Shown here piece after piece: positions 28,501-59,230 of a DNA stretch of 64,000 nucleotides; the stretch's first letter is position 1, and every line of letters starts with the position of its first letter. The position numbers were made by a program, and so were the translations under genes. The DNA is from Polyangiales bacterium. Lineage in GTDB: Bacteria > Myxococcota_A > Polyangia > Polyangiales > Ga0077539. The stretch is from contig JBGARZ010000016.1 in assembly GCA_044229975.1 (NCBI GenBank), positions 64,001 through 128,000 of the forward strand, read 5' to 3'. A model generated the notes under the pieces. The model searched no databases and had not been told where the DNA came from. It was given only the letters and a program-made list of their open reading frames with translations.

Positions 28501-28841
28501 CCGCACGCGGTGCCGCACGCGCCGCAGTTGGCGCGGTCGGTGTCGGTCGACACGCAGCGGTTGCCGCAGAGGACCTGCCCATCGGGGCACGACACCCGGC
28601 ACGCGCCGGCGACGCAGACCTGGGTGCGCGGGCAAGAAGTGCCGCAGCTCCCGCAGTTGGTGGGGTCCTCCTGGAGGTTGGCGCACGCGCCGCCACAGGC
28701 GACCTGCGGGGACGAACACTGGACGTCGCGAGGAACGTCCATGCCGCCCGCGTCGTTGCCGCCGACGACGCTCGGGCCGCTGGTACAGCCCGCGAGCGCG
28801 AAGAGCGCGGCAAATAAGACGTATTGGTGAAGTCGTGTCAT
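25572..28841 (-). CDS. Cys-rich repeat lipoprotein (18 x ~43-aa MXAN_6577-like repeats) with C-terminal beta-propeller
   Basis: GGAGG RBS; lipobox ALAGC; repeat SCxxGxTxCSGxCRDLQTDRANCGACGxxCxxGQVCxxGxC; propeller blades DLAFD, DIAFT, GLAFD. Confidence 0.88.
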   Translation of the reverse strand: MTRLHQYVLFAALFALAGCTSGPSVVGGNDAGGMDVPRDVQCSSPQVACGGACANLQEDPTNCGSCGTSCPRTQVCVAGACRVSCPDGQVLCGNRCVSTDTDRANCGACGTACGTGQVCAAGRCGLECGPTLALCSGSSDAGVDGGAERFCANTQTDRANCGSCGNACPAGQVCTGGSCVVNCGSSETNCSGSCRDVQTDRAHCGACGNACAAGQVCSTGSCQTSCGGGTTDCTGVCRDLQTDRANCGACGTTCAAGQVCSGGTCQTSCGGGTTDCSGLCRDLQTDRANCGVCGTACAAGQVCSAGSCQTSCGGGTTDCSGVCRDLQTDRANCNACGNACAPGAVCTAGVCSVSCGAGTTECSGTCRDLQTDRANCGACGTTCAAGQVCSAGVCQVSCAGGTTECSGICRDLQTDRGHCGACGNACAPGRLCSGGTCQVSCVSGTSECSGVCRDLQTDRANCGACGTTCTAGQVCSAGVCQVSCVAGTTVCSGVCRDLQTDRANCNACGNACAAGSVCVAGVCTVSCGSGSTACSGVCRDLQTDRANCGACGNACATGQVCTAGVCALSCASSQTACAGACRDLLTDRAHCGACGNACASGQVCSAGTCQVSCGAGLNECSGVCRDLQTDRANCGVCARTCASGEVCSGGVCAPTCGGGQVFCAGACRDVQTDRAHCGACNTACAAGQLCVAGACQVSCPPGQTNCSGVCRDLQTDRDRCGTCTTVCASGRVCTAGSCVLSCPTGLTACSGTCRDLQTDRANCNACGTACPGVQVCVAGACQANCATGQTACSGLCVDTSYDPNNCGACGTRCTAGQVCNMARCQTVALPFPARFFPIDIAGTPGSYNDLAFDNLGNLIFGTQSGQVISVSRTDGSQRVVASGVGGRLLSVAFHVARNTIYAVSDTGGLYAINPSTGASSLLVTISGAPNAIAIVPSGFSTFGDFIAVVGQFAELRMVNPATAAVTNFATIVGTGSDIAFTPNNTAVVVAGSTVKIVTAGAVVSTLFTGSGVSFDGVAVDNVRSLYYLADSSGDRLFSLPFAGGTSTALGSYDYDDGFFVAGLAFDGVDTLIMSTGESALRLVARSPLP
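26365..28720 (-). repeat. Intragenic tandem array, ~129-bp unit x 18
   Basis: Counted in the translation; GCGCGGTCGGTCTGGAGGTCGCGGCA recurs on the + strand. Confidence 0.9.
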
Positions 28842-28990
28842 GGGGTCGGAATCCTCCGTGTGGGGGGTTGGTGAGCGCGCGCTTCGACCCGACGACGCGG
28901 CGCGCCCCGCGAACATCGCACACAATCGCCGCGATCTCGCCGACTACGGTGCGCGGGTCTGACGCCCGCAGCTCCCCGCCTGGTGTCACA

Positions 28991-37240: not shown

Positions 37241-39940
37241 TCAGGGGAAGCCGACGACCTGCGTGGGTAGGCAACCGTCGCCGCAGGTCCCGTCTCCCGC
37301 CTGTCCCCGGACGGTGTTGCCCCAGCAGGCGACGGTCGCGTCGGAGAGGACGGCGCAGACATGATCCAGGCCGGCCTGCACGCGCACCGCTGGCCGCGAT
37401 AGCGCGACGGGCTCCGGCATCAACCGACGCACGATGTCACCGGCGCCGAGCTGGCCCGCGTCGTTGCGGCCCCAGCAGTACACCGCTCCGCTTTCGGTGC
37501 GAGCGCAACTGAAGGCGATGCCTACCGCGACCTCGACGACTCCCAACAGGCCCGCCACCACCACCGGGGTGGAGCGGGTCATCGTCGTGTTGTCCCCGAG
37601 CGCACCATCGATGTTCGACCCCCAGCACCGAACCGAACGATCGCCCATCACGGCACACGCGTGGTCATCCGCCGCGTCGAGGTCCAACGCCCCGGAGATC
37701 CCGGATACCGCGCCTGGAATGTTGCGGCTGACGGTCGTGCCGTTGCCGAGCGTTCTGGAGCTGTTGGCCCCCCAGCACAGCACCCTCCCGTCGGCGCCCC
37801 TCGCACAGTTGTAGTCGCGCCCGGACCCCAACTGGGCAGCGTCCGTCAGGCCCATCACCGCCACCGGCTCGGAGGCGTAGGCGGAACTGCCGTTGCCGAC
37901 CTGACCGAGTTCGTTGCCGCCCCAGCACTGCACCGTCCCCGCCGCGAAGCGCGCGCAGACGTTCCTCTGCCCGTGCGTCAACTGAACCGCTCCAGGCACA
38001 CGATCGACCCGTTCGGGCACCGGGCGGATGGACCCCGCAAGCGAGGTGAGAAGGCTGAAGTCGTTGTCGCCCCAGCACCAGATCGACCCGTCTCGGCGGC
38101 GTGCGCAGCTCCGGTCGCCGCCGAGGAAGACCTGGTCGACCTCGTCGATGCCGACGGCCGCCACGGGGGTCGCCCGCGGCACGGTGGTCGCGTCTCCCAG
38201 CTCTCCGAAATGGTTGTCGCCCCAGCAGCGCACTCCGCCGTCGGCGAGGACGGCGCACGTGTGGCGCGCCGAGGCGTCGAGCCCGACGACGTTGCGGAGC
38301 CCGACGACCGCGACCGGCGTGGCGCGTATCGCGTTCGACCCGTCGCCGAGGCGCCCGCTGGCCGAGGTACCCCAGCAACGCAGCGAGCTGTCCCCCAGTC
38401 GCGCGCAGACCGACCTCGCGCCCGAGCTGACGTCGACGACCCCGGCAAGGCCCGGCACCGCCGCGGGCAGCCCGCGCTCGGCAGCAAGACCGTTTCCGAG
38501 CTGGCCGTGGGTGTTGTTTCCCCAGCAGTGGACGGAACCGTCCGCTCGGCGCGCGCAGTTGTGCGCTCCTCCCGCCGTGAGCTGCACGACCCCGGACAGT
38601 CCCTCGACCGGTACGGGTCGGTCGGAAGGCGTGCTGCCGGTCCGCCCAAGTCGGCCGTCGAGGTTGCTGCCCCAGCACCGGACGGTGCCGTCGACCAGTC
38701 GAGCGCAGGTGTGGTCTGACCCAAGCGCGAGCTCGGCCGCAGGGGGGAGACCCACGACCGCAACCGGCGCGTGGCGGAGCGTCCGGGTGCCGTCGCCGAC
38801 CTCCCCGACCGTGTTCGAACCCCAGCACCAGACGGAGCCGTCGGCGCGCCGGGCGCAGGTATGGTCCGAACCCGCGCGGACCTCGACCACCTCCGTGAGC
38901 CCGGCGACCACGGCCACATCGTCGGTATCCCCCGGCACGCCGCGACCGAGCTGGCCCTGACCGTTGCTCCCCCAACACCGGACGGTGCCGTCGACCAGTC
39001 GAGCGCAAGTGTGGTTGTCACCCGCGCTGATGGCCGAGACCCCGGAGAGGCCCGGAACCACCCTCGCAACCCGCGCCGCCGTGGGGCGGTTGCTGCCGAG
39101 TTGATTGTAGTTGTTGCGCCCCCAACAGCGAACCGTGCCATCCGCGACGCGGGCGCAGGTATGGTTGCCGCCAGCGTTGATCTCCACGACCGCCGTGAGC
39201 GAGACCACGGGCACCGGCGTGAGCCGTTCGGTGGCGGCGGTGTTGTCCCCGAGCTGCCCGTCGACGTTGGCGCCCCAGCACCGCGCCGTGCCGCCCCGCA
39301 GGACGGCGCAGGCGTGACTGCCTCCGACCGAGATCTGCTCGACCACGACGGCCGGGCGGCAGCGCCCCAGCTCGCAGATCTGGTCCGCCCCGCACGCACC
39401 GCCGCATGCGGTCGAGTCGGGCTGCGTCGCCGCATCTGTTGGAGGTGGGGGTTGGTCTGAAAGGGGTAGATCCGGCGGCGATGGGGCGTCGGTGGTGGCG
39501 TCCTCCATGGCGTCAGTGCGGAGGACATCGACCGCGGGGACATCGATCGCGGGGACATCGACCGCGGGGACATCGACCGCGGGGACGTCGACCGTGGGGA
39601 CGTCGACCGTGGGGACGTCGACCGTGGGGACGTCGTCTTGCGCGTCGGGGTGATCGCCCATCGGCGTGACTGCGTCGGTCGCGACGAGTCCGCTGTCGGG
39701 GAGCGCGGAGTCGAGGGAAGGCACGAGGATGTCCTCCTCGCTCGGACGTGAATCGCGCTGCTCTTGAGGGGTATCGGGAAGCGCAACCGCGGAATCGATC
39801 GAAGGCGTCGCGTCTTCGTTTGGTCTTTCCTCATCGAGGACGAGGACGTCGTTGGTGGAGGGCGACACCGTCGCAGTCGGAGCGCAACCGCACCAGACGA
39901 CCAGAAGCGCGCACCACCCAAGCCCCGCCCCTCTCACCAT
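37241..39940 (-). CDS. RCC1-repeat exported protein / probable lipoprotein
   Basis: About 14 repeats of GxxHTCA..DGTVRCWGxNxxGQLG; hydrophobic N-terminus with Cys; acidic linker. Confidence 0.9.
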   Translation of the reverse strand: MVRGAGLGWCALLVVWCGCAPTATVSPSTNDVLVLDEERPNEDATPSIDSAVALPDTPQEQRDSRPSEEDILVPSLDSALPDSGLVATDAVTPMGDHPDAQDDVPTVDVPTVDVPTVDVPAVDVPAVDVPAIDVPAVDVLRTDAMEDATTDAPSPPDLPLSDQPPPPTDAATQPDSTACGGACGADQICELGRCRPAVVVEQISVGGSHACAVLRGGTARCWGANVDGQLGDNTAATERLTPVPVVSLTAVVEINAGGNHTCARVADGTVRCWGRNNYNQLGSNRPTAARVARVVPGLSGVSAISAGDNHTCARLVDGTVRCWGSNGQGQLGRGVPGDTDDVAVVAGLTEVVEVRAGSDHTCARRADGSVWCWGSNTVGEVGDGTRTLRHAPVAVVGLPPAAELALGSDHTCARLVDGTVRCWGSNLDGRLGRTGSTPSDRPVPVEGLSGVVQLTAGGAHNCARRADGSVHCWGNNTHGQLGNGLAAERGLPAAVPGLAGVVDVSSGARSVCARLGDSSLRCWGTSASGRLGDGSNAIRATPVAVVGLRNVVGLDASARHTCAVLADGGVRCWGDNHFGELGDATTVPRATPVAAVGIDEVDQVFLGGDRSCARRRDGSIWCWGDNDFSLLTSLAGSIRPVPERVDRVPGAVQLTHGQRNVCARFAAGTVQCWGGNELGQVGNGSSAYASEPVAVMGLTDAAQLGSGRDYNCARGADGRVLCWGANSSRTLGNGTTVSRNIPGAVSGISGALDLDAADDHACAVMGDRSVRCWGSNIDGALGDNTTMTRSTPVVVAGLLGVVEVAVGIAFSCARTESGAVYCWGRNDAGQLGAGDIVRRLMPEPVALSRPAVRVQAGLDHVCAVLSDATVACWGNTVRGQAGDGTCGDGCLPTQVVGFP
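39524..39635 (-). repeat. 15-bp tandem repeat x 7 encoding VDVP(T/A)
   Basis: GAC(A/G)TCGACCG(C/T)GGG units read directly. Confidence 0.9.
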
Positions 39941-40061
39941 GGGAACCGGAGTACCACGTTGAAAGGATCGCGGACAGACGACCACCTCGTCTCTCGCTCA
40001 CTCCTCCGCGGTCACCTTCTTCCGGCACGGCGGCGTTGGGACATTGCTCCGGAAGAGCGCC

Positions 40062-45009: not shown

Positions 45010-45963
45010 TCAGCGCCCGAAGAGGAGGATGTACCCGCGGCGCATCATCCTCGGCGGCGCGTCGAAGCCGTGGTCGAAGACCTCCGCCTGCTCGGGGATG
45101 TGCGCGGGCATCGGGATCTCCCCCCGCGCCTCGAGGCCCGCCAGCGCGAAGAGCCCGGTGAGCCGGTCGCGGTCGTACTCGTTGTCGGGGTACAGCCAGT
45201 CCTGGTGGTAGGCCAGCCGGCCGGTGCCGGGGCGCAGCACGCGGGCGAAGGCGCGGAGCTGCGCGACGGCCTCGGCGCGCTGTGAGTTACGGCCGAAGCC
45301 GAAGACGTTGATCATCAGCATCCGGTCGATGCTGTCGGCCACGACGTCGTCGAGGCCGGTGTCGCTGGGGCGCGTGACGTGGCGGGTGTCGACGCGCGCC
45401 CGGCGCGCTGCGGGAACGATCTCGACCTCGCTGCGGAGAACCTCCAGCGCGCGCGCGTCGACGTCCGTCGCGTAGACGAGCCCGGTGGGCCCGACCCGCT
45501 GGGCGATGGGGATGGTCAGGAGCCCGCGGCCGGCGCCCACGTCGGCGACCCGCATGCCGGGCGCAAACCCGAGGCCCTCCAGCAGCAGGGCGTGGATGCG
45601 CTCGACGTCCTGCGACGAGCGGTCGGAGTAGAAGTAGAAGTTGCGGGGGCGAGGGTCATCGGCGGCGAAGCAGATGCCGCGGTTGCAGTTGAGCGTGCCG
45701 CTGCAACGGCCGTTGGGCAGGCACCCGCACCCGGGGGCGCCGAGCTCGCAGCGCGCGGCGGCGCACACGCCGTTGTTGCAGGCGCCCTCGTCGCAGCCGC
45801 CGAAGGTGTTGCAGGCGCAGCCGATCTGACCCTGCACGCAGTGGGCGTCGTGGGCGCGTGCGCGGGCCGTGGGGTCGCGCCGCCGCGAGAGCACGACGCC
45901 TCCGACCAGGGCGACCACGAGCACCAGGAGCAGGGCAAGCGCGCGTCGGGGGACCGCTTTCAC
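45010..45963 (-). CDS. Class I SAM-dependent methyltransferase fused to N-terminal TM anchor and Cys-rich module
   Basis: VADVGAGRG motif I, VYATDV, ARVLRPG; N-terminal TM followed by two Cys-rich repeats. Confidence 0.82.
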   Translation of the reverse strand: MKAVPRRALALLLVLVVALVGGVVLSRRRDPTARARAHDAHCVQGQIGCACNTFGGCDEGACNNGVCAAARCELGAPGCGCLPNGRCSGTLNCNRGICFAADDPRPRNFYFYSDRSSQDVERIHALLLEGLGFAPGMRVADVGAGRGLLTIPIAQRVGPTGLVYATDVDARALEVLRSEVEIVPAARRARVDTRHVTRPSDTGLDDVVADSIDRMLMINVFGFGRNSQRAEAVAQLRAFARVLRPGTGRLAYHQDWLYPDNEYDRDRLTGLFALAGLEARGEIPMPAHIPEQAEVFDHGFDAPPRMMRRGYILLFGR

Positions 45964-46012
45964 GGCGGCGATACGACATCCAATGGGCGCTGCCCGTCAA
46001 CGGTCAACGCCG

Positions 46013-48379
46013 TCACTGGAGGGTCGGCGCGCCCAGCGCGTCGAGCAGCGCGAGGGCCATCTGCTTGCGGTCGCCGCCGCCGTCGTCGACGCCCGGGCTC
46101 ACGCACGCCGGGCACCCGTGCGGACACGGGCAGTCGAGCACCAGCGAGCGCACCTGTGAGAGCAGCACCTCGCGCCGCTCGAAGGCCCGCTCGGCGAGCC
46201 CCACGCCGCCCGGCGCCGCGTCGAACAAGAACAGCGTCGGCGACACCACCCCCGGGTCGTCGTCGGCGGCGGGGAGCAGCTCGATGGAGGTTCCGAGGTC
46301 TTGCGGCGCGCACATCAGCGCGAGGCTCGCCACGGAGCGCAGCGCGTGACCGATGCCGCGCAGCCCGTCGAGCACCCGCGCCCGGCCGCTCACCTCGCCT
46401 TCGCCGTCCATGCGCGCGCACGCGGCGTCGAAGCGGTCGGCGGGGAGGGTGATCCAGCAGGCGTCGGTCTCGATGACGAAGGGCGGGAGGTCGAGCTTGT
46501 CCTGCCCGAGGTGCTCGTGGGTGTGAAACCTCACGCGACGGAAGCCCGTCACCTCGGTGGTCACCTGCACCTCGCCCACGGTCGCCGTCGGGCCGTCGCT
46601 CTCGCCGATGAGCGGGGCCGTCTCTTCGGCGTGCAGCACCTCCAGGTGCGTTCGGGTGACGGCCTCGGTGAACCAGTCGTGCGGCGACGGAACCACCATC
46701 GCCCGCCGCCCGTCGAGGTCGAGCGACTCGACCAGCCACGGGACGCCCTCGTGCTGGTACACCGCCCGCGCGTGCAGTTGCAGCAGCGCGCTGCGGTGGT
46801 CGAGCTCGGCGAGCGTGCGCTGGGCCTCGCGCTCGATGACGGCCACCCGCACGTCGCTCACCGAGCGCAGCGACACCTTCTGCGCGGGGTAGTCGGCGGC
46901 CACCCAGGTGAAGCGTTCGCCGCTCTTGTGCAGCGAGCCTTCTTCGACGAGCACCGCGAGCGCGTCGTGCGTCGCCTCGGCGGAGAGCTCGCCGTACGAC
47001 TCGCGTCCGCCGAAGGGCAGCTCGAAGGCCGCGCAGCGCAGGTGCTGGAGCAGCAGCTCGACGTTGTTGGGGTCGACCCGCGCCTCCTCGATGGGCGCGC
47101 CGAGGATCCACCGCGGGTCGCGCGCGAGGTACTGATCGACGGGCGCGGCGGAGGTGACCAGCAGCGCGAGCGACCCGACGCCGCGGCGGCCCGCGCGGCC
47201 GAAGCGCTGCCAGAGGGCGGCGAGCGTTCCGGGGTAGGCGGCGCACACGACGGCGTCGAGGTCGCCGAGGTCGATGCCGAGCTCCAGCGCGGAGGTCGCG
47301 ATCACGCAGCGAACGTCGCCGTCACGAAGACCCTGCTCGATGCGTCGACGGGTCTCCGGGAGATACCCACCACGGTACGCCTGGAGCGCCTCGTCGGGGA
47401 TGCCCTCCGGGCGCAGGCGGTCGCGCAGGTAGCGGAGCATCGTCTCGACGGCGTGGCGTGATCCGCCGAAGACGAGCGTGGGGACCTTGGCGCGCACGAG
47501 GTCGGCGGCGAGGCGAACGGCCGAGCGGGTGTAGCTCGCGCGGACGCCCTGCTCGGCGTTGACCACGGGCGGGTTGTAGACGAGCACGTTGCGCGGGCCG
47601 ATGGGGGCGCCCGAGCGGTCGAGGGTGACGACGGGCGCGCCGATCATGCGGGCGGCGTGCGGCCCTGGGTTGCCGAGCGTGGCCGACGCGCAGAGGAAGA
47701 CGGGGTCGCTGCCGTGGAAGCGGGCCACGCGGCGCAGGCGGCGCAGGACGTTGGCGACGTGGGAGCCGAAGACGCCAGTGAGCGCGTGGAGCTCGTCGAC
47801 GATGACGTAGCGGAGCGTGGAGAAGAAGCGCGACCAGCTCGCGTGGTGGGGGAGCATCCCCGCGTGGAGCATGTCGGGGTTGGTGATGATCACGTTGGCG
47901 CGATCGCGGGCGCGGCGACGGGCGTCGGCGGGCGTGTCGCCGTCGTAGGCGGACACCACGGCATCGAGCTTGGAAGCGGCGAAGAGGGCGGTGAGGGAGT
48001 GCTCTTGATCGCGGGCGAGGGCTTTCGTGGGGAGCAGGGCGAGGGCGCGGGCGCCAGGCTCGCGGGCGAGGCGCTCGGCGAGGGGAAGGCTGAAGCAGAG
48101 GGATTTGCCCGACGCGGTGGGCGTGGCGACGACGAGGTGGCGGCCGGCGCGGGCGTGTTCGAGGGCGTCGCGCTGGTGGCGGTAGAGGGCGGTGATGTCG
48201 CGCGCGCGGAGGCCGTCGCGGACGGACTCGGGGAGGTCGTCGGGGATGGGGACGACGTCGGAGGCGGTGGGGTCGAGCGTGCGGTCGAGCGCGAGGTCGC
48301 GGCGTATCGCGTCGTCGCGACGCCATCGGTCGAGCACGGCGTCGACGCCGCGGGAACGCTGCCAGGGGGCGCGGGGCAT
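46013..48379 (-). CDS. DEAD/DEAH-box helicase with DUF1998 (MrfA/YprA/Hrq1 family)
   Basis: TPTASGKS, TNPDMLH, DELH, SAT, TSALELGID, QRFGRAGR, C-terminal CPCPHGCPAC. Confidence 0.93.
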   Translation of the reverse strand: MPRAPWQRSRGVDAVLDRWRRDDAIRRDLALDRTLDPTASDVVPIPDDLPESVRDGLRARDITALYRHQRDALEHARAGRHLVVATPTASGKSLCFSLPLAERLAREPGARALALLPTKALARDQEHSLTALFAASKLDAVVSAYDGDTPADARRRARDRANVIITNPDMLHAGMLPHHASWSRFFSTLRYVIVDELHALTGVFGSHVANVLRRLRRVARFHGSDPVFLCASATLGNPGPHAARMIGAPVVTLDRSGAPIGPRNVLVYNPPVVNAEQGVRASYTRSAVRLAADLVRAKVPTLVFGGSRHAVETMLRYLRDRLRPEGIPDEALQAYRGGYLPETRRRIEQGLRDGDVRCVIATSALELGIDLGDLDAVVCAAYPGTLAALWQRFGRAGRRGVGSLALLVTSAAPVDQYLARDPRWILGAPIEEARVDPNNVELLLQHLRCAAFELPFGGRESYGELSAEATHDALAVLVEEGSLHKSGERFTWVAADYPAQKVSLRSVSDVRVAVIEREAQRTLAELDHRSALLQLHARAVYQHEGVPWLVESLDLDGRRAMVVPSPHDWFTEAVTRTHLEVLHAEETAPLIGESDGPTATVGEVQVTTEVTGFRRVRFHTHEHLGQDKLDLPPFVIETDACWITLPADRFDAACARMDGEGEVSGRARVLDGLRGIGHALRSVASLALMCAPQDLGTSIELLPAADDDPGVVSPTLFLFDAAPGGVGLAERAFERREVLLSQVRSLVLDCPCPHGCPACVSPGVDDGGGDRKQMALALLDALGAPTLQ

Positions 48380-48473
48380 CGGTAGGGTGCGCGAGGGTAG
48401 CGCGAACGAACCGCGACAGGGACACCGGGGAGGGGGATCGACGAGGGTCGCATCGTCCCGGTACCTTTGCGGC

Positions 48474-49637
48474 GTGGAAGACCATCGTCGAAGCGCCCTG
48501 GCGCTGGTGTTGCCGTGCCTGCTCGTCGCCGCGTGCGGCCCTACCGAAGAAGCCGTCGTGGCTTCGAACGACCCTACGGACATGGACGCTGCCGTCCGCC
48601 CCGTCGACGTCGGCCGTCCCGCGGATGCGGGCTCTGTCGACCCGCCCGACCGCCCGAGCGTGATCGACGCGGGCTCTCCCGACGCCGCTGCTCCGGTCGA
48701 CCGACCGGTGCCCATCGACGCGCCGGTGCCCATCGACGTGCCGACCGCGGTCGATCGTCCGGTGCCCGTCGACGTGGGCGATCCGGGCACCGACGAGGCC
48801 ACCATGGGCGAGGCGGCCTTCCCGCGAAACTTCGGCTGCACCGCGCGCGTCGGCGCCCGCCTCACGGTCCGCAACGCCGGAACCTCCACCTGGACCAACG
48901 CCGCCGGCTACGCGCTCGGCGCCGTCGACGACAGCGACCCGCTCTCCTCCGCGACGCGGGTGCGCCTGCCCGATGGCGTGTCGGTCGCGCCGGGGGCGAC
49001 GTACGAGTTCACCATCCCGCTGGAGGCGCCGGGTCGCGCGGGCGCCGTCACCACCGACTGGCGGATGGTGCACGACGGCGTGCGGTGGTTTGGCGAGACG
49101 TCGCGCCACGAGATCACGGTGCACTGCACCACCGCCGCGGCCGCTGACTTCCGGCTCGCGGACGTGACGGTCGTGTCGAGCCCCGACGTGCGCGGCTTCG
49201 CGGTGACGTCGCGCATCACGTCGCTGTCGTTTCGCCCCGGAACCATCCACATCGACCACGAGCGCCGCGGGATGTGGCCGCCCGTGGTGATCGACGCGAG
49301 CGACGGCACCACGCAGGAGGCCACCATCTGGGTGTTCTTCCACATCGGCGACACCTGGTATGCGACGGGGGCGGAGCGGCTGCGGCCCAACCAGACCGAC
49401 AAGGCCCTGCCCAACCCGTCGTCGATGGGCAACGAGTGGCTCTACGACCCGGGTCGTTGGGCCGCGATGACCAACTACGTCCCGTCGCCGGGCGACCTCG
49501 TGGGCTTCATGGTCGTCGCCGGATCGACCCGCTCGGACGACCACGTCATCGTCAACGAGCGCACCGGGTTCATCCTCGTGCCCATGCCACGTGACGGGGT
49601 GGAGACGTCGTTTCCCCCCTTCGCGCGGCAGGAGTGA
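48474..49637 (+). CDS. Lipoprotein with NBR1-like Ig domain
   Basis: Lipobox LVAAC; VDVP linker; TVRNAGTSTW..VAPGATYEFT..APG..WRMVHDGVRWFG. Confidence 0.78.
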   Translation: MEDHRRSALALVLPCLLVAACGPTEEAVVASNDPTDMDAAVRPVDVGRPADAGSVDPPDRPSVIDAGSPDAAAPVDRPVPIDAPVPIDVPTAVDRPVPVDVGDPGTDEATMGEAAFPRNFGCTARVGARLTVRNAGTSTWTNAAGYALGAVDDSDPLSSATRVRLPDGVSVAPGATYEFTIPLEAPGRAGAVTTDWRMVHDGVRWFGETSRHEITVHCTTAAAADFRLADVTVVSSPDVRGFAVTSRITSLSFRPGTIHIDHERRGMWPPVVIDASDGTTQEATIWVFFHIGDTWYATGAERLRPNQTDKALPNPSSMGNEWLYDPGRWAAMTNYVPSPGDLVGFMVVAGSTRSDDHVIVNERTGFILVPMPRDGVETSFPPFARQE

Positions 49638-50057: not shown

Positions 50058-52493
50058 CTACTGCTGCCCGGCGCGGATGGCCGGGTCGTAGAGCACGAGC
50101 CCGTCGGAGTTGGAGAGCCACACGCGGTTCTGCGCGTCGATGGCGAGGTCGTTGAACTCCTCCGTCGGCAGTCCCTGCGCCCGACCCAGGCGGGTGAAGC
50201 TCTGGCCGTCGTAGCGCCACACGCCGCGCGGCCCCGCGCCCCACAGGTTGCCGTTGGTGTCCGTCGCCAGCGCGGTCACCCGCGGCTGCGACGACGAGCC
50301 CTCCACCGGGAACGCAAACGCATCCCCAGTGCGCACCCCAAGGCCCTCGGGCGTGGCGAAGTAGATGCGGTCACCCAGCGCGCGCGCCAGGTCGCTGACG
50401 AGGTCACCGCGCACGCCCTCGGCCTCGCGGAAGCGCGCAACGTCGCCCGCGGGCGAGATGGAGGTCATGCCGTCGAGGCCCGCGAACCACGCCGCGCCGG
50501 CCGCGTCGAAGGCCACGGCGGACAGGTCGCTCGGCGTGCGCCGGCTGCCGTTTTCTCCGCCCGTCGCGGGGATGTTGGCGTTGTACTGCGGCGCCACCGG
50601 GGCGTTGGGGTCGAGCACCGCCACGCCGAGCTCGCGCGAGTCGCCCGTCGCGCCCGCCGGGGGCAGCACGCGCAGGCCGACCCAGAGCTTGCCCGCGCGG
50701 TCGCCCACGAGGAAGCGCACGTCCACGGTGCCCGGCCCGTAGGTCTCGACGGGGCCGTCGAGCAGGCGGCGCCACGTCGCGCCTTCGAGCTTGTATCCGC
50801 GCAGGATGTTGCCGTCGCCGACGCGGGCCACCGCGAAGGCGTTGACGCCCTGCGACCAGAACATCAGCGGGTGGACCTGCGGGTCTTCCTCCAGCGCCAC
50901 GCGCTCGAAGTTGCGGCCGTTGTAGCGGACGGGGCCGCCGTCCTCGCCGACCATCCAGACGTTGCCGCGCCCGTCCGTCGCGAGCGAGAGCGCGCGGCGC
51001 TGCATGGCGAGGTCGTGCACGCGGTACTCCACCGCGGTCTGGTTGGGCCGCGTCTGCACGCGCGTCACGCCGAGGCCCACGCGCGTCACGAAGGAGTCGC
51101 GCGCCGCCACGTCGACCCGCACCGCGTCGCCCGGAACCCGATCAGGAACCGCGACCAGCCCGAAGGTGGGTGCGTCGATGGTGGGCCCGCCCGACGGCCG
51201 CTCGACGGGAAACCCGAAGGCCGGAATCTCTCGCGGGCGAATGGGGGGGAGCACCACCGGGGCAGCGGTTCCACCATCGGTGGCGGCAGCGACGACGGCC
51301 GCGGCGTCCGAGGTTGTCGCAGCGACGCCAGCGTCTCCGCGGCCACCATCGACGGCCGTGGCGGGTGCCGTCGCGGCGTCGGCGACCGCGGCGTCGGCGG
51401 TGGCCACGCCGGCATCACCGCGCGCGGTGGCTGGCGTCGCAGCGGGTGCCGCGGGACGAGCGGGCGTCGCGGCGGGCGCTGCCGGGCGGGCGGGCGCGGC
51501 GGGACGGGCGGCGGGTCGGCGACCGCGACGCGTCGTGGGCGGCGGGGCAGGTGGCGGGGGCGGGGCGGGCGGCTCGTACACCGACGGGTGGAGCTCGATG
51601 TGGGCGACGCCGCCGGGGGCCGCAGCGCCAGTCGGGGTGAGGTCTTCGCCGCGGTCGAGGACGATCTCGAAGAGGCCGGCGGTGGTGACGAGCGCGACGC
51701 CGCCCGCCGAGGGGACGACGCCGAGCCAGTTGGCGCGGCCCACGTCGCCGGTGGTGTAGCCGAACCAGCGGGTGCCATCGAAGTGGGCGAGCTGCATGCC
51801 CGAGGGGCCCTGCACCAGCGCCCAGATCTTGTTGCCGGGGAGCGAGACCACCGACCGAACGAGCTGCTCGGGGATGCCCGTCGGGACGTTGTGCTCGTCG
51901 AGGGCGGAGAGGTCGGCCGAGAGCAGGAGGAGGCCCGTCTGCGCGGTGCCCACGATGACGCGGTTGTCGGCGCCGAGGGAGAGGTCGGTGACCTGGTAGC
52001 GGTCGGTGAGCTTGGACCAGGCGGTGCCGTTCCAGCGGGCGAGGCCGTGGTCGCCGCCGAGGAGGACGCCCTCCGCCGTGGCGAGCAGCGCGGTGGGGCG
52101 GCCCACGTCGGGCTGCGCCTGCGGGTGACCGACCGGCGCAAAGGGACCGGTCGCTCCGGCGCGGGCGACGCCCTCGGCGGAGACGACCCAGATGGCGCTG
52201 CCGTCATCGCTGGCGGACACGGCGATGAGGCGGTTGCCAGGGAGGCCGTCGCGGGTGGTGAGGCGGGTGGGGGTTCCGCCGGTGGCGGGGTACTTCAGGA
52301 GGCCGCGCTCGGTGGCGACGTAGACGGAGCCTTCGGCGCTGGCGACATCGTTGATGAAGTCCGAGTCGGTGAAGACGCGCACCGGGCCCGAGGCGTTGCC
52401 CTCGGTGTTGGGCCGGGCCCGCGCCGACGAGCAGGCGAGGGGGAGCGCGGACAGCGCGAGCGCAGCGAGGGCAGAACGGTTCGACAGCTTCAA
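50058..52493 (-). CDS. Lipoprotein with two-component-regulator-type propeller repeats
   Basis: GGAGG RBS before TTG 52493; lipobox PLAC; DGLPGN, D.RGNVW, DTNGNLW, DAQNRVW blades separated by a Pro/Ala linker. Confidence 0.82.
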   Translation of the reverse strand: MKLSNRSALAALALSALPLACSSARARPNTEGNASGPVRVFTDSDFINDVASAEGSVYVATERGLLKYPATGGTPTRLTTRDGLPGNRLIAVSASDDGSAIWVVSAEGVARAGATGPFAPVGHPQAQPDVGRPTALLATAEGVLLGGDHGLARWNGTAWSKLTDRYQVTDLSLGADNRVIVGTAQTGLLLLSADLSALDEHNVPTGIPEQLVRSVVSLPGNKIWALVQGPSGMQLAHFDGTRWFGYTTGDVGRANWLGVVPSAGGVALVTTAGLFEIVLDRGEDLTPTGAAAPGGVAHIELHPSVYEPPAPPPPPAPPPTTRRGRRPAARPAAPARPAAPAATPARPAAPAATPATARGDAGVATADAAVADAATAPATAVDGGRGDAGVAATTSDAAAVVAAATDGGTAAPVVLPPIRPREIPAFGFPVERPSGGPTIDAPTFGLVAVPDRVPGDAVRVDVAARDSFVTRVGLGVTRVQTRPNQTAVEYRVHDLAMQRRALSLATDGRGNVWMVGEDGGPVRYNGRNFERVALEEDPQVHPLMFWSQGVNAFAVARVGDGNILRGYKLEGATWRRLLDGPVETYGPGTVDVRFLVGDRAGKLWVGLRVLPPAGATGDSRELGVAVLDPNAPVAPQYNANIPATGGENGSRRTPSDLSAVAFDAAGAAWFAGLDGMTSISPAGDVARFREAEGVRGDLVSDLARALGDRIYFATPEGLGVRTGDAFAFPVEGSSSQPRVTALATDTNGNLWGAGPRGVWRYDGQSFTRLGRAQGLPTEEFNDLAIDAQNRVWLSNSDGLVLYDPAIRAGQQ

Positions 52494-52682
52494 GGGCGAG
52501 TACCTCCAGCGAGCGCGGTGGGTGTCGCAGCGAAGGTCGCGGCTTGTCAACGGCGGCGTGGAGGCGCTGACGTTCGGAGCAGGTGTTGGCGGGAGGGGGC
52601 AAGGACGGCCACGGAGTCGGGGCCCTCGTCTCGACCGACGACGAGCGCCTCGCATCGCCACGACCCCTGCTGCGGACCCCAG

Positions 52683-55600
52683 TCAGGGACCGAGTGCGCC
52701 GGCGGCGACCCAGCGGTTGAGCGCGTCGACCGCGGCGGCGTTGCAGAGCAAGGGCGGGCGCGGAGTTTCCTGGGGCATGCGCCCGCTCGTGGGGTTCACC
52801 CACCGAAGGATGGACGCTGACGGGCTGATGATCGGCGATGCTGATGGGTTGGCGGGGGTGATCCACCCTCGGTTGTGGAGGGCGACGTACAGGCTCTCGG
52901 CTGTGCTGCCGAAGCCGCCGTGGGTGTGAAGGTGACAGGACTGGCATCGCCCCTCGGTGCCCGGGCCCAGGTAGCGCGTGTAGATATCGGTCCACGTCGG
53001 TCCGGGGCCGGTGTACGCACCGGCGTGCGGGGGGCATGAGCTGGTGCACGCACTCGCGGGCGGGGTGGAGTTTGACGCGCGTGGCGTCGGCAAGAGCCCG
53101 TACACCGCGACCTCATTCGCCTGTGTCCCCACGTAGACGCGCCCTCCGGCCACCGTGATCGGCGGCGAACGAAGCACACCCGGGGCAGGGTTCGGCACCG
53201 TGAGCTGGTCGGACAGGTGCACCGCGCTCGAGTAGATGGGCCCGGCGCCGAGGTTCGCCGCATCGTACGCGAGGAGGCCCGTCCGGCCCGCGCAGCTCGG
53301 GACGAAGGCCCAGAGCACGCCCGTGTGCAACAGTGCTCCGTTGGAGGAGATGCTCAGGGTGCTTCGATTGACCCCGAAGTTGGCCGACGGGTCTTCCTCC
53401 GCCAGCTGGATCGTGTCCCCTGCGATCGTGTACGCGCGCAGGTGATGATCGCTCGTCCAGAGGTAGAAGCGCGACGGACCGAAGGGTGGCGTCCACCAGG
53501 CTGGGCCGGCGAAGAGGGCGCCGACGCCGCCCACGCCCGTCGGGGGGTACGTGCTCACGGCGCCCGCGTTGTCGGTCGAGAGGCCGCCCAGCGCGTCGCG
53601 CCGCAGGAGGTAGAGCACACCTCCCTTTCCGCCCACGAGCAGGCGATCGCTCCCGGGGATGAGCATCGGCCCCGCCGAGCCGAGGTCGCCGTCGCTGTCA
53701 TCAAGCTCCGGGTACTCGTAGGGCTGAAACCAGCTCTGCACGGCCAGGGAGCCGCCCGCGCGCCGCCCGACGCGCAGCACGGCATTGCTGAAGCTCGTGC
53801 TCGACGACGCGGGGCCACCCTCGAAGCTCGCCAGGAAGTCCATCCGATCGAGCACCCCCATCGAGTTGCCCATCGCGAAGTACAGGTCGCCGCTCCCGGT
53901 GCTCGCCGGACCGTTGCCGTACTGCCAGATGCCACCGCCCTGGCCGTAGGCGTCCACGATGCAGTTGTTGAGCGAGCCCGTCGCGTTGCCCGGACCAACG
54001 GGCACGTGGTTCCAGCAGATGGTGCCAGCACTGAGGCGCGGCGACGGCGACCCCGACGGCGTCGTGACCATCGCGCCCGTCTGGGCGAGCGTCCCCGCGT
54101 CGTAGGAGATGAGCCAGCCGTGATAGGGCGTCAGGTCGCAGTGGCCGCCGAAGGTGATGTGTACCTGCCCGTCCTGCAGGAGAAGCGCTGGGCGCTGCAG
54201 TTGGTAGGTCGCGTCGAAGACCACCCTCCCCATCACGTTGCCCGTGCTGGCCCGAGGGTCGGTGAACCATGGGTCGTCCGGGGCGCTGACGTCCGTGCGG
54301 GTCGCGATGCGTGCGTTGCCCGCGACCGAGGCTTCGATGCGAACGGGGCTGCCGGGCCGCTCGACGCCTGTGACCAGGTCCACCGCGTGGAGGTGGTACT
54401 CGGGGTTCGGTTGGGGCGTTGCGTCCGCCGACCCTGGGACGCTCTTCACCGTGAAGTACATGGTGCGCCGCGACAGGTCGATGACCGGCGTGCTCACGAT
54501 GCCGACGTTGTCCTCCAGGTCTCCGCACCAGTAGTAACGGCGCCGATCGACGGGTGCGCCAAGGTCGGAGCGTGACCAGTAGAGCCGACGGTCTTCCGCG
54601 TCGAAGGCATAGACCCGGTTGTTGAGCGTCGCGACGTACACCACGTCGCGCCCGCCGATGGCTCCCTGCACATAGAGTGGTTGCGCGATCACCGCACCCT
54701 GCACCGGCAGCGCGCCGAGCCGCCCGAAGGTGCTGGGGCTGACGTTTGCCACGGTCAGCGCGGTCTCGCGGAGGTTCGCTCCCGTGCGTAGCGTGTCGTT
54801 GCGTTGGGTGAGCACGTTGACCGCGTAGCGGCCGAAGCCCACGACGGGCTCGACCTGCGCGCGCGACTCCGCCACGGTGTCGTCCCCGAGCTGCCCGAAG
54901 TCGTTGGCGCCAAACGACCACACCCGACCGTCGGCGGTGGTCGCGAGCGAGTGCGCGCCCCCAGCGGCAATGGCAACCACCGCGCTCAGGCCACCAATCT
55001 GCGCGGGGGTCGGGTGCGGGGCGCTCCCCGTGCGGCCGGTGATCGGCTCCAGGACGAGCTGACCGCTGCCCCCTTCGCCCCAGCCCCAGAGCGTTCCGTC
55101 CGCGCGGCGCGCCAGGCTGTGCGCGTCGCCCGCAGCGATCGCGGTCACGCCCGTGAGCGTCATGATGCGCCGGGGCGTGAGGCGGTCCACCGTGCTCCCG
55201 TCGCCCAACTGTCCGGCGGCGTTGCTGCCCCAGGCCCACACGCTCCCGTCGCTCCCGCGCGCGAGGCTGTAACGTCCGCCCGCCACGATGCTGGCGATGA
55301 CCGGCAACCCGCCGACCATCGCAGGCGTGGCGCGCTCCGTGGTGGTCCCGTCGCCGAGCTGGCCCGAGTCGTTGTCCCCCCAAGCCCACACGGCACCGTT
55401 GTCATCGAGCGCGAGTGAGTGGGCGCCGCCCGCCGCGACCGCCCGCACGACGCCCGGCCCCGGCACCCGCGCCGGCGTGAGCCGCGTGCCCCGCTCGACC
55501 TGCCCAAGCTGCCCGTGCGCGTCGGAGCCCCACGAGAAGAGCTCGCCGGTCTGGGTGACCGCGAGCGCGTGAGCGCCGCCCGCGGCGATGCGGACCGCAT

Positions 55601-58600
55601 CGGTGAGCCCCGTCACCACCGCGGGGAGCGAGTGGCGCGTCGTGGTGCCGTCGCCGAGCTCTCCCGCAGCGTTGTCCCCCCACGCGACGACGCGCCCACT
55701 GCCTTGCACTGCGAGGGCGAAGGTCCCGCCCACCGCGACGTCGAACACGTTCGCGACGCCTTCGACCGGGCCCGCCACGTGGTGCTCCGTCGCGGGCGCG
55801 CCGACGCCGTCTCCCTGGAGGTCGTAGCCGATGGTCCACAGCCGCCCGTCGCTCGCGAGCACGAAGCTCTCGGCAGGGCCCGCGGCGACCTTCTCTGCGA
55901 ACGAGATGCTCGCCCCCACGCAGCGCCCGGCGTAGCAGGCGTCGTTGCGCGTCAGCCCGTCGTGGTCGTCGCAGGTGGTCCCGTCCGCCTTGGCGATGCA
56001 GCGGCCGGTGCCCGGGTCGCAGGTGGCGCCGTGACACCCTCCCTCGGAGCACACCAGAGGGGCGCCCGCCACGCAGGCTCCGCCGATGCACGCGTCGCCG
56101 TGGGTGCACGCGTCCCCATCGTCGCAGGCTGCGCCGTCGAGCGCGCGCGTGTCCGCGGGGCAGGCGGAAGACACGCCGTCGCACACCTCCTCCGCGTCGC
56201 AGGCGCCCGCCGCGGGGCGGCAGGTGGTCGGACCCCCGCAGCGGCCGCTCGTCGACGTCACCGAGTAGCTCCAGGTCGCCTCCGCGCCGGGGTAGCTCGA
56301 CGCGCAGATGGTGGCCGTCCCCCATGTGCGCGCCGTACAGCTGCAACGCGAGCCCAGGCCGCAGGCGTCGTCGCTCTGGCATACGCAGTCGCCGTCCACG
56401 CGGAGCCACGGGTCGCCCGTAAACGAGTCGCAGGTGGAGATCGTGTAGGTCTGCCCCGCCTCGACCGTGAAGGTGTAGGTGGCGAGGCACTCGCCCAGGG
56501 TCGCCGCGGTGCCGCTGCCGGCGAGCCCGGACGGGCACTGCGCGGTCGGGATCAGACGATCGCTCGGGCAGAGCGGGTTCATCCCGTCGCACACCTCCGC
56601 CAGATCGCACGCGGCGGTCGCCGCTCGACACTCCGTCCCCGCTGGGAGGATCGACTCCACTAGGCACATCGCCCGCCCCTCGGAGCACGCCTGCCCGCCC
56701 TGGAAGCACCCGGCGGGGACGGTGCACGGGCCGCCCGGCTGCAGCTCGCAGCCGTCGCTCGGGTCGCCGTTGCAGTCGACCCAGCCCGCGTCGCAGCTCG
56801 CCACCCGGCACGCGCCCATCGCGCAGCCCGCGGTCGCGTGGGGGAGCGCGCATGCGCGGCCGCACAGCCCGCAGTGATCTGCTGTCGCGCGCAGGTCGGT
56901 CTCACACCCGTTGGCGGGCGCGCCGTCGCAGTCGCCGCGGCCGGGGTTGCAGAACGCTCCGCAGGTGGCCTCGCCGCACGCGCGGATCGCCTCGGCGCCG
57001 ACCGCGGGGCACACGCTCCCGCAGGCCCCGCAGTGGTCGGGGTTGGAGCGAAGGTCGACGCAGCGCCCGCCGCAGAGCGTGTCAGGCGTCGCGCACGCGG
57101 TGGCGCACGAGCCCATGGTGCAGTACCGACCGGCGCCGCAGGCGCGGCCGCAGTCGCCGCAGTTCGCCGGGTCGTGCTGCAGGTCGACGCAGCGCCCGCC
57201 GCAGGTACCCTGGTCCGGGCCGCAGGTGACCGCGCAGACGCCTTCGACGCACGCGTTGCCCGCGCCGCAGCGCACGCCGCAGCCACCGCAATTGCCGTTG
57301 TCGCGGAGCGGGACGGCGCAGTACGGCCCCGCGCCGAGGTCGCAGCGCACCGAGTCCGCCCCGCAAGCCACTCCGCACGCGCCGGCCGCGCAGAGCTGGC
57401 CCGCGGGGCACGCGCGGCCGCACGCGCCGCAGTGGTTGGGGTCGTTCTGCAGGTCGGCGCAGCGGGCGAGCGCGCCGGCGCCGCAGGTCGTGAGCCCGGC
57501 GCCGCATGCGCTCCCGCAGAGGCCCTCGCTGCACAGCTGGCCCGCGGGGCAGGCGTTGCCGCAGGTCCCGCAGTTCGCGGGGTCGTAGCGTGGGTCAACG
57601 CAGGCGGCGCCGCAGCGCACGGTGGGGGCGCCGCATGAGGTCGCGCACGCGCCGTTGGAGCACGCCTGGCCCGCGGGGCAGGCGTTGCCACAGCGGCCGC
57701 AGTTGGCGTTGTCCGTCGCGGCGTTGGCGCAGTACGCGCTGGGGCCGCGGCCGCAGGTCGTCATGCCGACGCCGCAGGTGGTGACGCACCCGCCCGCCGC
57801 GCACACCTGCCCCGGTGCGCACGCCGCCCCGCAGGCGCCGCAGTTGACGTTGTCGGACTGGAGGTTGGCGCAGGAGGCGACGCCACCGCGGGTGCAGGTC
57901 GTCAGGCCCGCGCCGCACGCCGCCTGGCACGTCCCGCGAGAGCACACGAGGGAGGACGAGCACGAGCGTCCGCAGGCGCCGCAGTGGTTGCGGTCGGCGC
58001 TGAGGTCGCGGCACGTGCCGTTGCACGAAGTCTCGCCCGCGCACCACGTCACGAAGGGCGTGACGTGCGTCTTGAAGGTGAGCGCCGCGCCGGGGACGTC
58101 CGCGTCACCGATCGTGTGCGCGCCGCCCGCGTAGGTGCTCAGCGGGTTGACGCCCGCGCTCACGGTGGCGGCGAGGTTGGTGCACTGCGCCGCCGTGGTA
58201 CACGCGACCGCGGGCGCGTTGCTGCATCGGCGCGTGCTGTTGGGGCACGTCCCCGTGGTCGTCGCGCCGGTCGCGGTGACGACGAAGCGGAGCCGACGGC
58301 CCGCGGTGATGGGAACACACGACGCGCCGAGGTCGAAGACCGCCCGCGCCCGTGCTGTGGAGGTGAGCGACGGGGGGAAGCGCGGGCATGACCCGTTGGT
58401 GACCGCGGTGTTCGGGAGCGTCGCGGTCGCGAGCGTCTGGTCGCGCTCGTCGAAGACCGTGAGCTGAACCATGGAGCCTGCGAGGAGCGCGCCCCCGCAG
58501 GTGGTGAGCGACACCTCGACGCCCGAGAGGAAGCCGGTGCGGCCCACGGTGAAGCGTTGCCCCGCGCCCGTCGCGAGCGTGAGGCCCACGCGCGCCGCGG

Positions 58601-59204
58601 TCGTCGCGGAGCTCACGAGCTCGGACTGGTCGATGACGGCTGTGGTGTTGGTCGCGGTACCGAGCGCGCACACGGCCGGGAGCGCGCAGGCCCCCGAGGT
58701 GCAAACGTCTCCCTCGGAGCAGACCCGGCCGCAGGCGCCGCAGTTGAACGGGTCGGACATGACGTCGCGACACGCGCCGCTCCCGCAGGCCGTGAGGTGC
58801 GACGCGCAGCTCGGCGCGCAGGCTCCGTCGGTGCACACCTCGCCGAGGCTGCATGCGTGGCCGCAACCGCCGCAGTGGACGGGGTCGGAGCGGAGGTCGT
58901 GGCATGAGCCGTCCGAGGCGCAGTGCGTGAGTCCGAGCCCGCAGGACCGCGCGCACGAGCCGCGGGAGCACACCTCCGTCGCCGAGCACGCGCGGTTGCA
59001 CGCGCCGCAGTGAGCCCGGTCGGACGTGAGGTCGCGGCAGACGTCCGTGCAGGTGAGCGACGGGAGCGCGCACCCGCCCGTAATGGGCTGGCGGCTCGAC
59101 GCGGAGGGCGTCGCGGCGGGGTCGTCACCCTGACAGCTCGCGGCGAGCGCGGCGACAAGCCAGAGGGAAAGGGCGACGAAGGCTCGGGGAGGTTGCGTGC
59201 GCAT
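52683..59204 (-). CDS. Giant multidomain lipoprotein: Cys-rich repeats, disintegrin-like motifs, RCC1 repeats, PQQ-like propeller, C-terminal CxxCH heme-c domain
   Basis: Lipobox LAASC; DxxNCGxC repeats; WGxNxxGQLG repeats; [54 protein letters not shown]. Confidence 0.85.
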
Positions 59205-59230
59205 GAGGGACTTCTCCACGCAGGCCGCTC

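Follow-up and report, generated by a model that had tools for sequence, protein, structure and literature searches.

A candidate quinohemoprotein at the tip of a long Cys-rich lipoprotein from a Polyangiales bacterium

Type II quinohemoprotein alcohol dehydrogenases (ADHs; EC 1.1.9.1) combine a propeller of the pyrroloquinoline quinone (PQQ) clan with a linker and a C-terminal CxxCH domain (available text of PMC8348568), and the same succession was found at the C-terminal tip of a protein encoded on the minus strand (52683..59219) of a 64,000-nucleotide stretch of DNA from a Polyangiales bacterium (assembly GCA_044229975.1, contig JBGARZ010000016.1, positions 64,001 to 128,000 of the forward strand; called the window below). 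FoxE, the closest solved relative of the heme domain described here, is a stand-alone diheme protein with crossed Met ligands, and foxE shares an operon with foxY, which encodes a predicted eight-bladed PQQ-type propeller (PMC10654088, in the part available). Among PQQ enzymes, a D-x-D motif has been published as a lanthanide signature (available portions of PMC11996626 and PMC5487730); the membrane-bound glucose dehydrogenase (GDH) also has D-x-D yet works with Ca/Mg (PMC11996626, same portion), so metal preference is not settled by the motif. We consider it probable that the tip of the window protein is a dehydrogenase dependent on PQQ and a metal, in which a His/Met heme serves as internal relay, and that it is carried on a generic anchored stalk, with sugars or polyols as likely substrates and a diffusible electron acceptor. 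By analogy its mode of action is likely to resemble that of the type II ADHs, though the propeller belongs to an uncharacterised family.

The open reading frame (ORF) comprises 2178 amino acids (aa) when read from a GTG codon, and ATG at 59204 is the likelier start (2173 aa), since residue 6 is where the alignment with P0275, a homologue of 60% identity, begins. From the N to the C terminus the protein consists of a lipobox, Cys-rich repeats, an RCC1 propeller, a second propeller of 582 aa (aa 1464-2045, 53085..54830), a 21-aa linker with Cys2058 and Cys2062 (aa 2046-2066, 53022..53084) and a 112-aa domain bearing the motif CQSCH (aa 2067-2178, 52686..53021), all on the minus strand. The entire architecture is kept in P0275 (2177 aa) and in P0282, from Polyangiales (2214 aa, 55% identity). 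The ORF contains the whole region covered by the initial annotation, which had described a lipoprotein of about 2170 aa with RCC1 repeats, a PQQ-like propeller and a terminal CQSCH domain; this description agrees with the present one, the position given there for CQSCH (52932-52946, aa 2092-2096) being exact and the distal RMP starting at aa 2147. Four DNA runs share short identical pieces with the region, one of them over 52694-52944, and none spans it; no RNA run with such a match was listed.

A propeller family with a predicted quinoprotein site

The tip, used as a query, retrieved 219 homologues; 120 were listed, mostly with coverage of the propeller only, and 111 of these 120 were aligned (alignment A1). 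Residue counts out of 111 refer to this alignment. In Pfam the 582-aa propeller had a weak match to PQQ_2 only (E 8.4e-4, below cut-off) and none to PF01011, and the window locus was absent from the PF01011 matches of its own genome. NCBIfam gave no notable match for the propeller (no TIGR03075 at E up to 1), and sequence searches of the PDB, run with both the tip and alignment A1, returned nothing significant. In the protein atlas the propeller falls with unnamed or 'pyrrolo-quinoline quinone' clusters, which are commonest in Acidobacteriota, and databases label family members 'BamB', 'pyrrolo-quinoline quinone' or hypothetical. At least 564 members were confirmed among the 603 pattern matches listed from GTDB genomes, with loci in myxobacteria, Acidobacteria, Ktedonobacteria, Verrucomicrobia and others (Streptomyces is also represented in the family); in a sample of the host phylum the propeller was rare, occurring in 6 of 401 genomes including the own genome (three candidates scored per genome). 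Literature searches, with subscription papers and bioRxiv supplements outside their reach, found no description of the family; the available part of one source (10.64898/2026.07.10.737718) treats six-bladed and canonical eight-bladed PQQ enzymes, and its supplements could list members. The own genome encodes two further members consisting of the propeller and low-complexity N-terminal linkers (C39:60526-62520 and C32:159120-161282), which keep the Q, R, D, W, N, D-x-D and K positions described below. In another genome (L038, G268 C2) a family member is broken across two reading frames near its C terminus.

Most of the propeller was modelled with confidence by AlphaFold2; in the same two-domain prediction the heme domain had a predicted local distance difference test score (pLDDT) below 50. 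The propeller is predicted to adopt the eight-bladed fold of the PQQ clan, the number of blades being taken from the structural matches. With Foldseek, the top four matches of the propeller model were all quinohemoprotein ADHs, of type II (1KB0, 1KV9 and 1YIQ) and type III (subunit I, 8GY2). With VIA-align, Z was 30-34 for designed propellers, YxaL, Rv3035 and BamB and 28-29.5 for quinoproteins (28-29 to 1KB0, 6ZCW and 9M2C), so that non-catalytic propellers scored level with or above quinoproteins (YxaL 31.7, BamB 30.6 and Rv3035 30.2, against 29.0 for ADH), and the fold alone cannot decide between an enzyme and a scaffold. The alignments to true quinoproteins extended over 392-422 residues from the N terminus of the model, compared with 318-365 for natural non-catalytic propellers. 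The order of Z scores would suit a non-catalytic binding propeller of the BamB, YxaL or Rv3035 type, with the heme domain added independently to a generic adhesin as a mobile redox or sensing tag, as would the sharing of the stalk by 102 ORFs, the lack of heme in most family members and the occurrence of the heme domain alone, in tandem and on hydrolases. We regard such a tag on a scaffold as quite improbable, given that a buried-type set of Asp, Asn, Arg, Lys and Trp residues shows hardly any variation although overall identity is about 30-40%, that no large partner of the heme domain is commoner than this propeller, which is also paired with an unrelated diheme domain, and that the family is present in Ktedonobacteria and Streptomyces, which are not known to have a BAM complex.

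The conserved positions were compared with those of 18 type II ADH-like proteins, taken from the genomes of relatives, by profile-profile alignment, which gave probabilities of 94.6-97.8 (E 7e-8 to 4e-12); the BamB-like protein of the own genome, used in the form of a single sequence, scored 48. Directly aligned were Gln1513 (AQPL, 54681..54683; Gln in 105 and Glu in 4 of 111 homologues) on the Glu of EATP, the loop of Cys1565 (54525..54527) on the Cys-Cys-Asp (CCD) loop, Asp1695 on the Glu of GGAE (Cys1694-Asp1695, 54135..54140; Asp in 107 and Glu in 3 of 111), Asn1785 on the Asn of GTGN (MGN, TGNG in relatives; 53865..53867; 109 of 111) and Lys1865 on the Lys of KNG (53625..53627; 111 of 111), with Asp1695 and Asn1785 as predicted metal ligands. 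Two further positions were reached through P0191, a PF01011-positive protein from the heme-domain search that joins this heme domain to another kind of PQQ-clan propeller. P0191 aligns to the ADHs at probability 99.7, with DFDF on DYTS, and to the propeller family at 92.7, where DGDL falls on DFDF and GGIW on GSVW; it carries D-F-D, and Cys-Cys after the metal-ligand loop, and its propeller presumably resembles those of polyvinyl-alcohol dehydrogenases. By this route Trp1765 (GGIW, 53925..53927; 111 of 111) is predicted to stack on PQQ, and Asp1843-Gly-Asp1845 (53685..53693; 111 and 108 of 111) is predicted to supply the catalytic Asp and a lanthanide-type second Asp. Arg1676 (QRPAL, 54192..54194), invariant in all 111 homologues and with no ADH Arg counterpart at this place, is a candidate ligand of a PQQ carboxylate. 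The roles of the aligned ADH residues we take to be PQQ contact for Trp, Glu, Arg and Lys, metal binding for Glu/Asp and Asn, and catalysis for Asp.

Counted jointly, these eight positions (Q/E, R1676, D/E, W, N, D, D and K) were complete in 103 of the 111 homologues and in 68 of the 77 complete ORFs among the 87 found in 79 GTDB loci. For the two Cys residues (the Cys of the 1565 loop and Cys1694), the raw counts of both, neither, loop Cys only and second Cys only, uncorrected for relatedness, which limits their weight, were 56, 51, 4 and 0 among the 111 homologues and 55, 20, 2 and 0 among the ORFs of the GTDB loci; because the two co-vary, a disulfide substituting for the vicinal Cys-Cys of the ADHs is suggested. 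In the scheme proposed here, PQQ would lie on the propeller axis between Trp1765 and the Cys1565-Cys1694 disulfide, with Ca2+ or a lanthanide held by Asp1695, Asn1785, Asp1843 and Asp1845. Among its least secure steps, Asp1843 may act as base on a sugar or polyol hydroxyl, a substrate class suggested by the carbohydrate-binding fusions of relatives; reduced PQQ would then pass single electrons to the His2096/Met2148 heme, and the heme would pass them to a diffusible acceptor outside the membrane, possibly a small cytochrome, Fe(III) or O2. Equally tentative is the part given to the Cys-rich stalk and RCC1 domain, which would form a generic display chassis likely carrying the tip to or past the cell surface.

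The supply of PQQ was examined in the own genome, where pqqC and pqqB scored above cut-off in a profile search. Reading of the sequence placed pqqD and pqqE downstream of pqqC and a pqqA peptide ahead of pqqB, the last missed by the pattern search and found only by reading the pqqB locus. The operon is split between contigs, pqqA-pqqB on one and pqqCDE on the other (G000 C19:494755, C32:237221), and an apparent TGA inside pqqC is the normal stop ahead of pqqD. Three heme-assembly matches were obtained, two of which were read by eye as CcmF-CcmH and CcmC. Both gene sets that the initial annotation had proposed to look for, pqqABCDE and the heme c maturation genes, are thus present. A canonical eight-bladed PQQ dehydrogenase was not found in the 93%-complete own genome, with no TIGR03075 match above cut-off; PQQ may have other users in the host, since GSDH-type genes are present.

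Across the phylum pqqC was found in 58 of 401 genomes, and in 3 of the 5 other phylum genomes having the propeller. When the genomes of 50 of the 79 GTDB loci were tested, it was present in all six other genomes with the fused form and in 11 of 44 genomes with unfused or truncated members. The 33 of 44 genomes in which pqqC was not found speak for a propeller enzyme that has kept an ancestral metal site and works with no PQQ, using another quinone-like cofactor or none, with a heme that serves this chemistry or is incidental; 14 of the 33 hold no strong canonical quinoprotein of PF01011 type. Also in keeping with such an enzyme are the presence of tetrathionate hydrolase, of the same fold clan, among the fold matches (Z 25.7, 360 residues aligned), an NCBIfam family named 'acido-empty-quinoprotein', and the family-specific invariants R1676 and HGW, which have no ADH counterparts. 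The remaining 19 of the 33 pqqC-negative genomes hold strong PF01011 canonical quinoproteins anyway, so the absence of pqqC says little, and PQQ scavenging is reported to be common in the available part of 10.64898/2026.07.10.737718. None of three family members tested matched 'acido-empty-quinoprotein', the own genome and all six other fused genomes have pqqC, and the Trp, Gln/Glu and Lys positions, which in ADHs presumably contact PQQ, are kept alongside the metal ligands. An enzyme of this fold working with no PQQ is, on balance, unlikely.

The heme domain and its fusion to the propeller

An exhaustive search with the heme domain gave 145 clusters (proteins P0122-P0266), from which 152 domain copies were aligned. 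Both Cys and the His of the attachment motif were kept in 150 of the 152 copies, the predicted distal ligand Met2148 (GRMP, 52776..52778, aligned with the RMP of FoxE) in 148 and Trp2170 in 150, the Pro that follows the Met being kept as well, so the conservation of the heme motif in homologues, on which the initial annotation had made its proposal depend, was borne out. Among the 145 proteins the motif was spaced as CxxCH in 59, CX4CH in 64 and CX5CH in 15. CQSCH is the sole CxxCH in a protein with 140 stalk Cys residues, and because its two Cys and the His are also kept in 150 of 152 copies it is unlikely to have arisen by chance. Judged from sequence, a conserved CxxCH and distal Met in a predicted exported protein of a host with a maturation system fit a c-type cytochrome with His/Met ligation. 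Modelled alone, the domain was predicted with confidence as a helical structure (pLDDT 88). No Pfam family matches the heme domain itself; its atlas neighbours include PSCyt1 (16% of members).

With the heme-domain profile, FoxE was the only solved sequence to reach E <0.001 (E 9.2e-4, a modest value); it was also the top structural match of the domain, with Z 6.0 (under the tool's threshold of 8), a root-mean-square deviation (rmsd) of 3.2 and 100 residues aligned, followed by PccH at Z 3.4. By these comparisons FoxE appears to be a nearer relative of the domain than the cytochrome portion of type II ADHs is. FoxE being the best solved relative by both profile and structure, and foxE and foxY sharing an operon, the tip could be a fused counterpart of FoxE and FoxY, in which the heme would take electrons from Fe(II) or another extracellular reductant, the propeller would assist and electrons would flow inward. 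This is very unlikely in our view: FoxY is described with short loops (PMC10654088, in the part available) and the window family has ADH-like loops, no heme chain or porin-cytochrome gene was found among the neighbours scanned, and relatives carry carbohydrate-binding modules. Nor was a link of the window protein to Fe(II) oxidation found, or a foxEYZ-type operon among its neighbours.

The heme domain can stand by itself, in tandem or as a C-terminal tag. In 16 of the 145 clusters it is accompanied by the propeller, 11 times complete and 5 times partial; one of the 16, P0252, appears to be the paralogue from the own genome (L005 7088-11560, minus strand; G000 C23), a protein of 1490 aa with TSP3/disintegrin-like repeats, RCC1, propeller and CAGCH...NMP. 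The gene of this paralogue adjoins a Ser/Thr kinase gene and a TPR-like gene, as does the window gene. In a FastTree phylogeny of 147 complete propellers, from which 5 incomplete rows and P0252 were left out, 23 fused rows fell into five groups and three changes were needed, a pattern that would be explained either by an old fusion with losses or by several fusions. Among 63 long homologues there were 4 in which the same propeller carries an unrelated C-terminal diheme domain, and two of the 4 are near-identical (P0303, P0311, P0328 and P0329: propeller, PA14 and a diheme domain with CLTCH/CLQCH...CAQCH...KMPP).

Several observations weigh against reading the tip as a PQQ dehydrogenase with a heme relay. 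The direct ADH alignment slipped at W1765 and at D1843-x-D1845, the latter not being placed on WDYT, and the assignment of D1843-x-D1845 depends on the single bridge sequence P0191; neither the Arg of VNRG nor the vicinal Cys-Cys of the ADHs has a direct counterpart, the invariant R1676 lying elsewhere, and a profile comparison with four GDH-like sequences fell short of significance (probability 6). CxxCH was seen in 1 of the 120 homologues listed and a CX4CH domain in one more, 73 of the 79 GTDB loci lack the heme domain described here, which is present only in 6 near-complete myxobacterial loci, and the six fused genomes are closely related to one another. A subtilisin-like protein and a GH25 hydrolase are among the other proteins that bear the heme domain, and Foldseek gave no significant match for it. 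Against this background the quinohemoprotein interpretation of the initial annotation stands in part: it has more behind it than the letters alone could show, and none of the findings named there as refuting it was made. A PQQ/metal residue set is conserved and aligned with that of type II ADHs, and the structure prediction it had called for yielded a PQQ-clan fold in which metal-ligand positions could be assigned by alignment; two ADH features, the Arg and the vicinal Cys-Cys, lack an equivalent, and the notion of an enzyme held off the membrane would apply to a stalk that is generic.

Stalk, cellular location and neighbouring genes

A signal peptide ending in a lipobox (LAAS-C29, 59133..59204, read by eye) predicts a lipid anchor. 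It is followed by the Cys-rich region (aa 50-1105, 55905..59072), with 12 [NH]CGxC repeats of the MXAN_6577/Stig1 type and other Cys-rich units, the 140 Cys being counted within aa 30-1105; the repeats match Stig1 (Pfam, E 4.7e-31) and NF041328, MXAN_6577-like (E 4.5e-109). The RCC1-like propeller (aa 1106-1463, 54831..55904) has Pfam matches at E 2.8e-78 and 1.9e-56 and contains no Cys. Also part of the stalk are a stretch with weak likeness to PPC and an insert poor in Cys (aa 185-392); over window positions 58020-58700 (minus strand) this insert of about 200 aa has no significant Pfam match and is conserved in P0275, and an AvrPiz-t match within it (E 0.038, below cut-off) was taken as chance. 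At least three MXAN_6577-type Cys repeats (up to 37) were found in each of 102 ORFs of the own genome, with varied C-terminal tips, and many fused relatives are proteins of about 680 aa with no stalk, others having a Cys-rich part after the heme; the stalk is for these reasons seen as a generic chassis that stands outside the chemistry. One of the 102 ORFs (C39:144575-147712) also ends with CxxCH. The length of the protein and the presence of GspD in the own genome suggest a surface-exposed tip; the tip may instead be periplasmic.

In long relatives of the propeller (6 of 63 long relatives rescanned, plus P0207) the additional domains are CBM6, CBM35, PA14, F5/8, malectin, GH31 and lectins of the legume and ricin types, which by analogy point to a carbohydrate substrate. 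No recognised carbohydrate module was found in the window protein, so the substrate class is assigned by family.

The neighbours of the window gene encode a regulator-type propeller, a kinase and a TPR protein. The gene downstream (50058-52661, minus strand) begins 22 bases past the stop and may be co-transcribed; in its product a long linker rich in Ala and Pro interrupts propeller repeats of the two-component-regulator kind. Further along the minus strand of the window are a MrfA-type DEAD-box helicase with a Zn-binding domain (45960-49544), adjoining a 740-aa ORF with no family match, a 914-aa protein made up largely of RCC1 repeats (37241-39985) and another Cys-rich stalk protein, with 16 Stig1 stretches and a weak DUF4394 tip (25572-28925).

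Significance and comparison with known systems

The propeller family is large and has no Pfam, NCBIfam or PDB entry above cut-off, and the fusion to heme offers it a testable function. If the proposed activity is true, the window protein would be a third quinohemoprotein architecture and a first handle on a large uncharacterised enzyme family; the lanthanide motif would be extended to a remote family, FoxE-like domains would be seen to serve in something other than iron oxidation, and PQQ chemistry outside the cells of myxobacteria would be suggested. A bolder proposal, which we hold to be doubtful, is that the mislabelled secreted propellers of Acidobacteria, Ktedonobacteria, Verrucomicrobia, Streptomyces and myxobacteria form a new class of lanthanide/PQQ carbohydrate dehydrogenases, and that in myxobacteria the propeller and a FoxE-type heme sit on an extracellular disulfide stalk, where they would oxidise surface polysaccharides and pass electrons to extracellular acceptors, as a bacterial counterpart of the fungal cellobiose and pyranose dehydrogenases.

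In structure the window propeller resembles the type II ADHs, with 422 residues aligned to 1KB0 (rmsd 2.9, Z 28.3) and the Glu/Gln, Glu/Asp, Trp, Asn, Asp and Lys positions in correspondence. Unlike them it shows about 15% identity and no sequence match, the vicinal Cys-Cys is missing, D-x-D replaces D-x-T, the heme domain is FoxE-like, and a lipid anchor, a 1050-aa Cys-rich region and an RCC1 domain are added; membership of the type II family was rejected (no TIGR03075 or PF01011 match, no vicinal disulfide, a different heme domain). With XoxF and PedH (4MAE, 6ZCW) and the D-x-D sugar dehydrogenases it has D-x-D in common, here in the loop inferred to be catalytic, and 411-414 residues could be aligned (Z 28), although the family is remote from these and the position of the motif is derived through a bridge protein. 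BamB, YxaL and Rv3035 have the same fold at equal or higher Z, but are aligned over shorter lengths (318-365 residues), the conserved polar site being extra in the window family. Membership of BamB was likewise rejected: TIGR03300 scored 12.4 bits against a cut-off of 285.2, BamB is a stand-alone lipoprotein of about 390 aa, and a separate BamB-like gene lies on C38 of the own genome. The CxxCH...RMP...WIxAGA pattern aligns to both halves of FoxE (5MAB), which in the Rhodobacter foxEYZ operon is likewise paired with a PQQ-type propeller; in contrast to FoxE, the window protein has one heme motif, fused to a long-looped propeller. A functional analogy, with no homology claimed, is offered by CcPDH, a fungal pyranose dehydrogenase of AA12, which in the available accounts is a secreted PQQ enzyme with a fused cytochrome that acts on sugars and, unlike the window protein, has a six-bladed propeller and heme b.

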